Of a stretch of DNA of 64,000 nt, positions 16,485 through 59,522 are shown piece by piece (positions within the stretch are counted from its first letter, which is position 1; each line of letters opens with the position of its first letter). The stretch covers positions 86,676,001-86,740,000 of the forward strand of contig OX597825.1 in NCBI GenBank assembly GCA_951406725.2, read 5' to 3'. The notes beneath the pieces were generated by a model, which saw nothing but the letters and a program-made list of their open reading frames with translations, had not been told where the DNA came from and searched no databases. A program made the translations under genes and the position numbers. Source of the stretch: Octopus vulgaris. Lineage: Eukaryota.

Positions 16485-16517
16485 TTTCTGACGAAGAGCT
16501 CCGCTCGAAACGTTAAA
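16485..16517 (+). ncRNA. Minimal type-I hammerhead ribozyme, family A (module ~16407-16620)
   Basis: UUU-CUGACGA-A-GAGC(UCC)GCUC-GAAACGUU-AAA: canonical core, 4-bp stem II, palindromic ACGU stem III, 3-bp stem I. Confidence 0.75.
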
Positions 16518-16704
16518 CCCTCCTTCCTCCCTTCCTTCCTGAGCGTCCAATAATACTATATTTGTTCCACGTCCTCGAGTTGTTGTGTTTTCTCTTTGTG
16601 TTTTCATGTTTGGATTAACTTTACATATATATATATATATATATATATATATATATATATGTATATGTATCAAATGAAATAAAAAGCAGAACACAAAGGA
16701 TATC

Positions 16705-16796
16705 GCGGTACACGTGTTTCAAGCTTTATAAAACAGCTTATTCTTACATCAATGTATAATCGACATAACAGATGGTTTAAAGCCCTCTTCAGCCGC
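16705..16796 (-). ncRNA. Type-I hammerhead ribozyme with long stem II
   Basis: GCGG-CUGAAGA-GGGCUUUA...UAAAGCUU-GAAACACGUGUA-CCGC: stem I GCGG/CCGC, palindromic ACACGUGU stem III, GUA site. Confidence 0.85.
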
Positions 16797-17010
16797 ATGC
16801 AATTGCTACACCAAAGACTTGTATCACATTATGAAAAGTCCGAAAAAGAACATTTGGTATTATTTATAATGGTAGGTATATTGAGTTTCACTGAGAAAGT
16901 ATGTTTGTAAATCTTCATAATCAAATAGGTGTATCATCTGTCAATATATATATTGACAGACCGTTAGCTCCTACACGCATTTTTTTCTCTCCTTGTTTCT
17001 TTTCTGTGTA

Positions 17011-17048
17011 TCTTTCTGTCGAAGAGCGTAGGCTCGAAACGTAAAAGA
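17011..17048 (+). ncRNA. Minimal hammerhead, family A, A6U core variant
   Basis: UCUUU-CUGUCGA-A-GAGC(GUAG)GCUC-GAAACGUA-AAAGA; module ~17000-17150 is nearly identical to 39562-39710. Confidence 0.7.
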
Positions 17049-17335
17049 CTTGTTTTATTTCTATTCCTGAGCGCCATACTAATACATTTGTTTGTTTGTA
17101 CTCCACCTGCCTTCGTCTTTTGTTTATTTTCGTAAACCTTCCCGTTATATGTTCTCGGCCTGTTAACGTCTGTGTGTTGTGTGTTGGTACTTGATAAATG
17201 AAAAAATGCATAGTAAATAAGCAACGGCAGCTAAAAAACGTATTCGTATAAGACAGAGAGGGTCCCTAATTCTTCATCAGTTGTCTACCAAAATGGTAAT
17301 ACGAGTCAGAAGACATGAACATTTTAAAATATATT

Positions 17336-18087
17336 AGTGTATGAAAACATACAGGAAGAGACGACCACCATGTGGATTCCTTACATGCTAAAAATGGCAG
17401 TCGAAACCTAAAACCACGAAACCATATTCTTAGATTAAATCACGTTGACTTGAGTGAATAAAATATAGTGAACCTTATACTAATAAGTTTCGATATTACT
17501 GACCAAATAATTCAACTAATAAGATAATTAATTGATTATTTAATCATCCGTAGCTCATATTTACGTCTCCTGACTCTTCTTACTCATGCTGGCCACTGGT
17601 AAATAATTATTTAATAATTTTTAACCTTATATTTATAAAGTTAAATATTTAAATTCTTCGGCCAGAGGTTTACGTTTGAATTTATTCACTGCTGTACTAC
17701 TCTGGTGTCGCACGTTGTTTTGAGGTTATTCTGAGAGAAGAATCCAGGATGAATCAAGATGGAACTGAGTGAGTTTGTGCTTTACTTTGTGCTTTCGCTA
17801 CGTATTGCAGTTTTATGTTTATGCATTTAATTAGCAACCTTACTGATGAGCTACGGATGATTAAATAATCAATCAATTATCTTATTAGCTGAATTATTTG
17901 GTCAGTAATATCGAAACTTATTAGTATAAGGTTCACTATATTTTATTCACTCAAATGTCTTGCTCGCGTACAAGTCACGTGCTTTAATGTAAGAATATGC
18001 TTTCGTGGTTTTAGGCTTCGACTGCCATTTTTAGCATGTAAGGAATCCACATGGTGGTTTTCTCTTCCCGTATGTTTTCATACACTA
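17336..18087. mobile_element. Foldback/MITE-like element with ~220-240 bp inverted arms
   Basis: 17336-17557 is the reverse complement of 17847-18087 (few mismatches, one indel); ~290 bp spacer. Confidence 0.85.
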
Positions 18088-18765
18088 TTGTATATATATA
18101 TATATATGTATGTGTGTGTGTGTGTATATATACACTTATATACACTATGCAACACATATCGCCTCAGTTTTGCGAGTTGGCTCATCTCCCATTGATTCCG
18201 AATGGTTTCTCAGCCTCATTATAATTGCTCTGATTTCTTCTGTTAACTTCTGTGGGTTTTTTTTCCCCTTTGACACTTTTGTTCATTTAAAAAAAACTCT
18301 TCACAAACAGATGTCTGTATGTGGTCTCTGACCCTGTTAGAAACACCAACAAAATTCTTCTAAAAGAATATTGTATGTGCCTTGAAAAATAAAGATTAGA
18401 TTAGGCAATTATTTTCATAGATTAATTAATCTTACTAGTTAAAACACACTGAATGACGGAGCCTCTCCGTAGTCGCCCAGCATACTAGACATAGCAGCAA
18501 AGCTCCCCCTCATTGCAGACCCTAACTTCAGACGCAGTGAAACCGTCCGCCACAAGACCTGCTTACGTCTACCGCGGGTTTTTAAAAATACAATTTATGG
18601 CTTTACTTAATCAATATTAATGGCTAACAGTCTCAGAAAAAAATTGTTACATGTAAAGATAAACAATTGCCATCTAAAGTTTTATTTTAAATAAACAAAA
18701 TTTATATATTTTAGAGTTTTTAAAAACTTATTTTAAAACTTGATGCAAAATGTGTTCCTTATTTG

Positions 18766-19588
18766 TCATTTGGTCTTTTCTGTAGAACCCCGCTTTGGTA
18801 TTTCAGTGCGACACTCCACTGTGACACTTCAGGGTACTTCCACCCCAGTGAATGCGATGTTATTGGTCATAACATTTATAGGGTCTCCCCAATTATTGAT
18901 CAATGAGATCGATATTGAGTTGCAATTTCTCGTGTTGGACAACTGTTATTGGAAATGGAGAGAAAGGAACTTGCCGAAGATTTTGACATTGGCCAGGAAT
19001 GACTGAGATCTGCCTTTATGTTTGTGAGATAAGATGCAGTAGAGATGATGAGAAACGGAGAGGATGTATCTGTTGGAGGAAGTTGGAGGGTGTGGAGTTT
19101 GATATTGCAGAGGAGCGGGTTCTGTCCTGGTTGCTGTCGAGGTGAAAAAGAAGAGTCGGCAGTTTTTTTTTTATGTCAATCATATTAATAGGAATTTTTC
19201 AGAACATAGTTGACGATGTTTGTGTAGCAGCGGCACCGTTTCAGATGTGTGATTTGAAGGGGATTTGGTAGCTGTTTTTAGAAGTGTTGAGCGACCCCTT
19301 ACAGGATTCCCTCGTTCAATCATTATGACATCGATCAGTTTTGCAGTAGTGTTAACATCATATTAAGTAATATTTTTATCAGCCCTGGGAGTGATAATGG
19401 CGGTACTTCCGTTTTTCTATGTTGCATTATGTTGTTTTGGGTTGTGCTTAACAGATTTTGTAGAGTGAAATGTTGCCTTTTCTTTTAATAAAGATCAACC
19501 TTAACAGAACAACACTGAAAGGTTTGGTGAATATAATTAATTCTGGAGTGTTACAATTGATAGAAATAGAAAGGAAGCTTCCAGACAT
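18766..19588 (-). pseudogene. Decayed gene, possibly a Polinton/PLV-type minor capsid (penton) protein
   Basis: N-terminus MSGSFLSISINCNTPELIIFTKPFSVVLLRLIF and C-terminus FLANVKIFGKFLSLHFQ*QLSNTRNCNSISISLINNWGDPINV...SVTVECR resemble single jelly-roll mCP patterns. Frameshifted, with a repeat fragment at ~19250-19320. Pattern recall only. Confidence 0.3.
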
Positions 19589-57590: not shown

Positions 57591-58185
57591 TTTCGTAGGA
57601 CTGCCTTCCTTTCATAGAAAATCCTAAACAAAATTTTTATCTCAAGCGTACCAACTGGGCCTTCAACCTCTTATGTAGTGGACCTCGTTCGTACTCCAGA
57701 CTCCTTTTTATATTTTACGGAAAATCAAATCATTTGCACGTTTCACGATTTTATAACATTTATTAAGATATTTTTCAAGTTTTTCCCAATTTACTTCCTT
57801 CATAGAAATGGCGAAGAAGGAAGTGACTTGATTAAAATCATCTCATTAGTTATTCTGTTTTTTTCCTAAAGAGATTTCTTCAAATCCCCCCGCCTCTCCC
57901 TTCTCACCATTCCTTTTCTTAGCACTGAAAAACAAAGCTTCTACTCAGATCTATCAATAAAATTAAGTTTTAAATTTCTAAATGCCTTTCCAAACCTTAA
58001 ACTTTAAATTTACATTTTAATCCGGAGGCGCCTGAATTAATGCTCAGCAAACAATTCCAAAGATGGTGGTTTTTCTTGTTTATCTTTTTATATCAACTGG
58101 GAAAAAGCAGAAACGGATTTCGGCCCGCGTACTTCCATATTAAAGAGGCACGTGAGACTGGTGATACAAAGTTCAGTCAACACTG

Positions 58186-58630
58186 CTATCTATCTATCTA
58201 TCTATCTATCTATCTATCTATCTATCTATCTATCTATCTATCTATCTATCTATCTATCTATCTATCTATCTATCTATCTATCTGTCTGTCTGTCTGTCTG
58301 TCTGTCTGTCTGTATTTTATATATTTTGTCTGTCTGTCTATATATATATATATATATATATATTATATATATATATATTATATATCTATATATATATATA
58401 TCTATATATATATCTATCTATCTATATATATATCTATATATATATATATATATATATATATATATATATATATATATATATATATATATATATATATATA
58501 TATATATATATATATATATATATATATATATATATATATATATATATATATATATATATATATATATATATATATATATATATATATACATATATATATA
58601 TATATGTATATGTATATATACATATATATA
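58186..58630. repeat. (CTAT)n/(CTGT)n/(TA)n microsatellite
   Basis: Directly visible. Confidence 0.97.
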
Positions 58631-58697
58631 TGTAATGATTGTGGATTAATAATGGTTAAATACATCGTCTGTGAGTATGAAATTCCTCCTCTTACCG

Positions 58698-58888
58698 CTG
58701 GAAATTTAAATCTTCACTATGGATTAATTCACCTTTTCTGTGAAGCTAATAAGTCTTTAAAAACCTGTGATAAGTCTGTGCATCATCCTCCTCATATCTC
58801 TGGAAATTTAAATCTACACTATGGATTAATTCATCTTCTCTTCGAAACTAATAAGTTTTTAAAAATCTGTGATAAGACTGTGCATCAT
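58698..58888. repeat. 102-bp tandem duplication (about 1.9 copies)
   Basis: CTGGAAATTTAAATCT..ACTATGGATTAATTCA at 58698 and 58800. Confidence 0.85.
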
Positions 58889-59002
58889 CATTAAGGAACT
58901 TTGGAAAACTGTTTACAACCTATATCTGCCTCTAATGGAATTATCTCCAATATTTCATGAGTATAACCTCACCCACTAAGATGTCTAGAGAACTCATATG
59001 TA

Positions 59003-59093
59003 TTTTAGCTGATGAGTACGGGACACTTTTATCTGCTGCAATTTTTGCAACTTGTAATAAAGCCTGTCTTTGTATGAAACAATTGTACTAAAA
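59003..59093 (+). ncRNA. Type-I hammerhead with long stem II, canonical core
   Basis: UUUUAG-CUGAUGA-GUACGGGACA...UGUCUUUGUAU-GAAACAAUUGUA-CUAAAA: 6-bp stem I, palindromic ACAAUUGU stem III. Confidence 0.88.
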
Positions 59094-59416
59094 ACTAATC
59101 CATTCTTGTTGCTTCTTTCTCGTATATATATATATGTGTGTATATATATATATATATATATATATATATATATACATATATATATATATATATATATATA
59201 TATATATATATATATATATATGTAATTTTTGGGACTAATGGGTATATGTCAATTAGTATGTTTAGTAAAGCACGTTCACAGTTTGGGCTACCTGGTGTCA
59301 TCCACAGTTGCGGTATATTTCCGCTGGATTTACTTCAGGAATGCCTGTGTTAGTGGAGATAATAATAATAATCGTTGAATGAAGCGGAAGATTGATTTGG
59401 CATTAGTCTTTATTCA

Positions 59417-59522
59417 ATACGACGATCGTTTCGACCTCCCCCTGGGACTGTCCTTTATAGGTGGGACGCTGTGCATCCAATTGTGTTGCATCGACCAGTG
59501 CAGTCTGGGTTACATCCGGTAC
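59417..59522 (-). ncRNA. Degenerate long-stem-II hammerhead
   Basis: GUAC-CGGAUGU-AACC...GGUC-GAAACGAUCGUC-GUAU; two core mutations. Confidence 0.45.

Follow-up and report, generated by a model that had tools for sequence, protein, structure and literature searches.

We analysed 64,000 nt of Octopus vulgaris DNA (GenBank assembly GCA_951406725.2, contig OX597825.1, positions 86,676,001 to 86,740,000 of the forward strand), referred to below as the window and numbered from its first letter. The window is AT-rich and microsatellite-dense, with 53 merged (TA)≥5 tracts, and it contains modules that carry a type I hammerhead ribozyme (HHR; Table 1). An earlier reading, here called the original prediction, had described four loci at which HHR modules of different families face each other tail-to-tail across a (TA)n tract, and had proposed that both strands of a nicked or broken tract prime reverse transcription. 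The tail-to-tail geometry was confirmed at three loci and, more weakly, at the fourth: at all four the modules lie on the strands that had been assigned, the coordinates given correspond to the helix I ends of the HHR motifs, and a TA tract lies between both modules. As set out below, the modules are 3' ends of Penelope-like elements (PLEs), and the pairs probably arose by separate insertions.

Hammerhead ribozymes in the window

A strict blind descriptor scan for type I HHRs, with a score cut-off of at least 26 and a noise level taken from 30 shuffles, gave 16 matches in the window compared with a mean of 0.47 in the shuffles. These matches cover seven of the eight modules named at the four loci (16488+, 16792-, 33421+, 33758-, 39577+, 39856- and 59009+); 39577+ has one core mismatch (CTGTCGA). 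The eighth, module K (59417-59522, core 59518-), scored 17.3, a level at which shuffles yield 6-10 matches; its core (CGGATGT) has two mismatches, its domain II is 79 nt long, and its 196-nt tail has no sister copy within the window. Module K is within noise. Thus, three of the four convergent loci are solid, and the fourth (59003/59417) is weak. No Rfam family reached its gathering score in the window, and the E-value ranking, among the matches listed, was filled by microsatellite matches to microRNA models.

Most modules found in the blind scan have canonical cores; at least three HHRs carry core substitutions, and cleavage is predicted from the motif. An extra base after A9 is present in families A, B, C, D and I and absent in G and J. 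The short helix III is palindromic or nearly so in the modules, a feature that was demanded by the strict scan that gave this set and not by the earlier first scan. The covariant U3-A8 core occurs twice (27324 and 47681), in the best-formed HHRs of the window. An AG lies immediately 5' of the HHR core at 59003-59009, 27318-27324, 47675-47681 and 46559-46565, three times after a T-rich stretch; because the Penelope intron ends at helix I (PMC4209133; here and below, papers are cited from excerpts), this AG is, by analogy, a possible 3' splice site.

A domain II of 51-65 nt, together with a core that is intact or nearly so, is found in seven HHRs, which represent five or six families. With such a long domain II, as seen in the first scan, the two core halves are far apart. 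The stability of the long domain II relative to shuffles gave z values of -1.0 to -1.5 in six, -3.0 in one and +0.25 for K; folding support is weak save in D1, and therefore we do not claim a conserved structure.

Module anatomy and polarity toward (TA)n

The modules are 5'-truncated 3' ends of PLEs. A PLE origin, which the original prediction had proposed, is supported by the excess of type I HHRs together with 3' ends that are fixed within families and 5' ends that vary. Modules are 100-300 nt long. In family A, all five copies have their 3' ends at the same alignment columns and start 18-81 nt before the core, and the 3' end is common to both copies in B, D, F and G (2/2 each). In 14 curated copies the tail ends 21-162 nt from the HHR cleavage site, and in K 196 nt from it.

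The tails are directed toward TA. A (TA)≥5 tract lies at most 250 nt from the 3' side in 15 of the 16 blind matches (background 0.19, P = 2e-10) and at most 250 nt from the 5' side in 11, the latter count being of distance only and including heads that reach TA via an inverted partner. At 150 nt, TA is found on the 3' side in 12/16 and on the 5' side in 8/16. Families A and B sit within TA with tracts on both sides, and other elements and palindromes in the window likewise end at TA tracts. Because TA is on the tail side in 15/16 matches, pairs across one tract tend to be convergent. The polarity also bears out the microsatellite-targeted insertion suggested before; such targeting of (TA)n by octopus Hydra and Naiad PLEs is already published (PMC8557442).

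Source elements

The remnant of a PLE open reading frame (ORF) at 60922-62030 belongs, as judged from its sequence, to the Hydra clade. Its plus part encodes a thumb, a CxCX5C linker of the Hydra form and a GIY-YIG-type endonuclease, with frameshifts and stops. Its 5' part is joined to this in inverted, head-to-head orientation, and the arms have about 70 bp in common. A full HMMER search with the remnant gave 2937 relatives at E≤0.001, and word-seeded protein searches found nothing. The relatives have the domain order reverse transcriptase, thumb, linker, endonuclease; Pfam GIY-YIG was matched only weakly (E 0.0009 in one relative). The part of the reverse transcriptase N-terminus in which Hydra elements have DKT and RWK motifs is absent from the remnant, and the relative P0123 has DKT and RWF. 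The remnant resembles Hydra-1_Obim of Octopus bimaculoides by eye (Craig et al. 2021, PMC8557442). Neptune was dropped as its identity because of the linker.

Members of the Hydra clade have a C-terminal endonuclease, a CxCX5C linker and a canonical HHR within the last ~200 nt of the element, and are found almost always in (TA)n (PMC8557442); the supplement tabulates (TA)n preference for Hydra-1_Obim and three octopus Naiads. In 16 of 26 Hydra rows, by a by-eye count, helix II has an extra base on each side (ctgaNgat...tgaa; PMC8557442), as it has in modules B, C2 and D1. The modules resemble the clade in their (TA)n target, in carrying a type I HHR in sense orientation within the last ~200 nt, in these extra bases and in a small palindromic helix III. 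Thus, on sequence grounds, the probable source of the modules is the Hydra clade, which targets (TA)n, or a derivative of it that is non-autonomous. The clade is assigned at this strength only because no module is joined to an ORF and no listed consensus matched: six short module motifs gave no exact match, and in a comparison of 3' ends by eye the core signature alone was shared with Hydra. PLEs have been active recently in O. vulgaris (PMC13282606).

Arrangement of paired modules

Partners within the pairs gave no blastn match to each other, in agreement with the view that facing modules are of different families. The convergent architecture recurs at four tracts; the description of it had omitted four head-to-head HHR pairs, each within one family, as well as a tandem across TA 27410-27450 and a divergent arrangement across (TA)5 16944-16953. 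Counted as a single event, the inverted duplication at 29295-30899 was excluded from the curated counts, in which the doubly flanked tracts comprise four convergent, one tandem and one divergent. Also left out of the convergent counts were two further candidate loci, 34330-34383 opposite B2 and E2 plus 200 nt opposite the D pair, in neither of which the end is fixed by a sister copy. Compared with random orientation, 4/6 convergent gives P=0.038, and 3/5 at the 250-nt cut-off, at which K is dropped, gives P=0.10. If the convergent probability is 0.44 (a hand estimate, with head:tail contacts of about 1:2), 4/6 gives P=0.24.

Sister copies of three partners occur without a partner: A2 (98% identical to A5), B2 (95% to B1) and C1 (76% to C2). 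Moreover, window self-comparison did not find the same pairing as a recurring A-(TA)n-B unit, the four pairings all being different. A pair as a single composite element is therefore ruled out. Target-site duplications around composites were not seen among the five largest repeat families per region, where TA flanks hide them. The longest pure TA run is 36-71 nt in convergent tracts and 13-20 nt in 5/7 single-tail tracts (P=0.054). Trains of TA-separated modules extend over 16.3-18.1, 27.3-28.3 and 33.0-34.6 kb, and therefore re-use of tracts is plausible.

Origin of the convergent pairs

In total, we conclude, with a probability of about 0.72, that independent tail-first insertions into a palindromic, re-used (TA)n target yield the convergent pairs. 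The endonuclease of the element would nick (TA)n, and from the 3'-OH at the nick reverse transcription would be primed at a point that is particular to the family and lies 20-200 nt downstream of the HHR cleavage site; the tail would thereby be joined to TA, and the 5' end would halt at a variable position. Because (TA)n reads alike on both strands, insertion orientation would be free. The tract would remain a target after the first insertion, and long, already used tracts would be hit again. A later insertion of another family in the opposite orientation would give (+)HHR-TA-(-)HHR; one in the same orientation would give a tandem in which an HHR near the tract is visible only if the insert is short, and convergent pairs would therefore be the commonest visible class. 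Target priming of the insertions, the assignment of each module to a clade, the succession of the insertions and the repeated use of tracts are inferences.

Elements of this scheme have been described in other PLEs. In vitro, a PLE protein cleaves AT-rich DNA and carries out extension of both strands, and PLE reverse transcription starts at a fixed site downstream of the HHR (Frangieh et al., PMC11167929); the median length of PLE insertions that arose de novo in Chlamydomonas is 128 bp, and their target is a microsatellite (PMC9977147); and PLEs tend to insert beside earlier PLE copies (PMC6765202). Since the families in each pair are mixed, two separate insertions are the simpler route.

Several results weigh against independent insertions. 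A distance-only null built from unpaired modules (20-module set) gave P=0.14, 0.038 and 0.004 at 250, 300 and 400 nt, where the two wider cut-offs take in the inverted duplication and K comes in as well at 400 nt; given the spread of the orientation P values, the answer depends on the null chosen. Tracts with tails on both sides number four versus 1.04 expected among 52 (P=0.006, equal weights), and this co-occupancy excess has P=0.036 when length-weighted, P=0.022 among the 37 tracts near a module and P=0.03 without the weak module K. In the blind set there are three such tracts versus 0.6-1.0 expected (P=0.009-0.054). Simulated sequential insertion reaches four co-occupied tracts at only P=0.003-0.016, and at P=0.05-0.16 if used tracts are re-hit 3-5 times more often, a factor that was assumed. 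Finally, tblastn with 150 relatives of the ORF remnant found ORF pieces at 33924-34073 and 60922-62030, none of them joined to a scored module. All these P values are optimistic, the window having been picked for this very pattern: a small co-occupancy excess remains in a window selected for it. Because this excess remains, a coupled mechanism stays in play, and we regard it overall as unlikely rather than negligible.

Geometry argues against the proposal that both partners were primed together. Priming from both ends of a cut tract would join each tail to its own flank, and the arms would meet head-to-head, giving TA, arm, arm, TA. In the window this geometry is found within one family at 46455-46687 and 17329-18088, and in an older form at 38109-38397 and 45674-46187; pair D (46455-46687) is the usual product of priming on both strands. 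Same-family head-to-head arms with TA outside occur at none of the four loci in question, where pairs are of mixed families and have the opposite geometry. For tail-to-tail pairs to form in one event, either the nicks would have to be offset and the TA duplex between them preserved, or a (UA)n tail would have to be self-priming. It is rather unlikely that, at long (TA)n, either offset nicks or annealed (UA)n RNAs insert two families tail-to-tail in one event.

Taken alone, the offset-nick model, an explicit form of the original prediction, is less likely again. In a single event, offset nicks on opposite strands of a long annealed (TA)n would serve as primers on two PLE RNAs that differ from each other; short staggers would melt and give head-to-head arms, and long staggers would give tail-to-tail pairs. 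In its favour, both strands are cleaved and extended by a PLE protein for which a dimer is predicted (PMC11167929), convergence is seen at the long tracts, and there is a nominal excess of co-occupancy. However, long tracts would equally be expected if they are better targets and are hit repeatedly, and all four pairs are mixed-family whereas the two-strand products in the window are same-family and head-to-head.

Cross-priming, in which read-through RNAs or complementary DNAs with self-complementary (UA)n ends anneal tail-to-tail, are extended and are inserted as a unit, appears highly improbable. Self-priming from the 3' end on a sense template is predicted to yield tail-to-tail repeats (PMC3846280, Discussion), and the inverted duplication around TA at 29295-30899 has such a form in one family, its two copies of module H being 100% identical and tail-to-tail; however, that structure may equally reflect DNA fold-back or an assembly fault. 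Moreover, no composite recurs despite the presence of sisters of three partners, and two rare RNAs would have to meet.

Long (TA)n is break-prone, and other elements and palindromes in the window also end at TA tracts; nevertheless, the retro-patching, without an endonuclease, of breaks that arise spontaneously at fragile (TA)n, the other part of the original prediction, has very little to commend it, for nothing points there, 3' ends are family-fixed, a patched break would leave TA outside the inserts and not between them, and the window holds the remnant of an endonuclease-bearing clade with a published (TA)n preference (PMC8557442). Equally remote is pure ascertainment without tract re-use, in which the window was chosen for the pattern and a degenerate motif was accepted to complete a pair: K is within noise and 3/5 convergent without it gives P=0.10 against random orientation, but tail polarity is far beyond chance and three pairs are solid.

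If separate insertions are the origin, the pairs are an ordinary by-product of known (TA)n-targeting PLEs, and orientation counts around a palindromic target need correction for tail polarity. If they arise in one event, tract length would switch between head-to-head and tail-to-tail products, and cross-family priming would be revealed. An excess that holds genome-wide would be evidence on second-strand use by PLEs and on cross-family priming, and the pairs would be cheap markers. The window also offers uncatalogued PLE families and long-helix-II hammerheads.

Comparison with known systems

Two oppositely oriented copies at one site are also the outcome of L1 twin priming. The inverted pseudo-long terminal repeat (pLTR) structure of PLEs (PMC3846280; PMC8557442, Fig. 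2 legend) is similar to the convergent pairs in having two opposite copies at one site. This inverted form is represented in the window by the four head-to-head pairs (46455-46687, 17329-18088, 38109-38397 and 45674-46187) and the interior of the ORF remnant; it is same-family and head-to-head with TA outside, whereas the convergent pairs combine different families, tail-to-tail, and enclose the TA. The excerpts of PMC8557442 do not describe such mixed tail-to-tail pairing, and among the titles and excerpts found on tail-to-tail or twin-primed PLE pairs at microsatellites none describes mixed-family pairs across (TA)n. The excerpts of PMC12602865 contain nothing on insertion targets.

Solo or truncated PLE minimal HHRs (min-HHRs) are scattered through genomes as single motifs, thousands in each (Cervera and De la Pena 2014, PMC4209133), and share with the modules the base between 9 and 10.1, the palindromic 15.2-16.2 and the U3-A8 variant. 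In Schistosoma, dual min-HHRs lie 100-700 bp apart on opposite strands (PMC4209133). The octopus pairs are likewise dual, opposite-strand HHRs; the excerpts of PMC4209133 give no orientation, family or intervening microsatellite.

The Hydra table (PMC8557442) has only short loops, of about 10 nt or less, in contrast to the domain II of 51-65 nt in five families of the octopus modules. Long helix II is not covered in the passages seen of the review PMC6155905, and may already be described by Lunse et al. It is unlikely that the long-helix-II HHRs are an uncatalogued variant of octopus PLEs and, jointly, that one-event cross-family tail-to-tail insertion holds.

Naiad PLEs share the (TA)n preference in three octopus species (PMC8557442). 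Naiads are without a canonical HHR, and some have a split 'half core' (PMC8557442), whereas the modules have full cores and are unlike the 3' ends of Naiad_Obim and Naiad_Ovul by eye; with canonical cores in most modules, a Naiad identity was rejected. Non-LTR (long terminal repeat) retrozymes resemble the modules in that they are short, do not code for protein, carry a type I HHR and are related to the pLTRs of PLEs (bioRxiv 10.64898/2026.07.22.740005). They are defined there as tandem, with at least two HHR units, and were rejected as an identity, window self-comparison giving dispersed monomers only.

Features of the window

Table 1. Positions of HHR modules, TA tracts and PLE fragments in the window.
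Feature	Position	Strand	Details
Module A1 (family A)	16407-16621	+	Minimal type I HHR 16485-16517, core 16488; tail 107 nt, pyrimidine-rich; TA flanks both sides
TA tract, pair 1	16622-16670		Longest pure run 36 nt
Module D0	16671-16797	-	HHR 16704-16797; 65-nt domain II; 38-nt tail; 5' limit not fixed
Module A2	16954-17146	+	Partnerless; divergent from D0 across (TA)5 16944-16953
Same-family head-to-head pair F	17329-18088		Arms 17329-17558 minus, 17836-18088 plus (HHR core 17843); tails point outward, right tail on TA
Tandem G1-TA-A3	27270-27634	both +	G1 (U3-A8, 27324), TA 27410-27450, A3 (27514); left limit approximate
Module C1	28982-29120	-	Sister of C2, partnerless; tail not joined to TA
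Inverted duplication	29295-30899		Centre TA/GA 30077-30183; module H per arm: 29874-30026, 30234-30386
Module A4	33341-33541	+	HHR 33417-33452, core intact; TA both sides
TA tract, pair 2	33542-33628		Longest pure run 71 nt
Module B1	33629-33772	-	HHR 33705-33772; long near-palindromic helix III; TA both sides
PLE endonuclease fragment	33924-34073	+	tblastn E 4e-12
Module B2	34406-34539	-	TA both sides; without scored HHR partner
Same-family head-to-head pair I	38109-38397		HHR core 38220 minus
Module A5	39559-39706	+	HHR 39572-39609, core CTGTCGA; truncated 18 nt upstream of core; TA both sides
TA tract, pair 3	39707-39764		Longest pure run 56 nt
Module C2	39765-39897	-	HHR 39777-39864; 52-nt domain II; 21-nt tail
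Same-family head-to-head pair E	45674-46187		Decayed HHR-like cores, below threshold
Same-family head-to-head pair D	46455-46687		HHR core 46565 plus; 91% identity between arms; both tails have TA on their outer side; junction with a short overlap
Module G2	47640-47767	+	U3-A8 variant, core 47681; tail on CA/TA; partnerless; left limit approximate
Module J	59003-59120	+	HHR 59003-59093; 6-bp helix I; 60-nt domain II; 33-nt tail
TA tract, pair 4	59121-59224		Longest pure run 46 nt
Module K	59225-59522	-	3' half good (GAAAC-GATC-GTC), core decayed; 196-nt tail
Hydra-clade PLE ORF remnant (by sequence)	60922-62030		Minus reverse transcriptase piece 60922-61251 head-to-head with plus part ~61280-62030
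HHRs with long domain II	16704-16797, 17836-17933, 29000-29086, 38140-38223, 39777-39864, 46559-46646, 59003-59093		

Each of the five copies of family A is on the plus strand (16407-39706; P about 0.06, by hand). Short motifs like the 5' end of the Hydra-1_Obim consensus were seen, by eye only, at 33201-33317 and in family A heads (16954-16975). Family A is a candidate non-autonomous unit with an internal deletion.

In the inverted duplication at 29295-30899, each arm is about 800 bp long and TACA array lengths differ between the arms; it could have originated by fold-back, self-priming or an assembly fault. At 34330-34383, HHR-like helices and a GAAA are present with no core, and the tail lies on TA opposite B2; together with B2 this is a possible decayed fifth convergent pair. 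A 124-nt palindrome (94%) without an HHR starts at a TA tract at 27655-27778, and may be a very short head-to-head insertion, its left arm being tail-to-tail with module A3. Upstream of module J lies a 102-bp tandem duplication (88%) at 58684-58889. Adjoining module K, the segment 59631-59999 matches Pfam RVT_1 (E 0.01) as a fragment of a reverse transcriptase and includes a palindrome of 92 nt (59794-59885).

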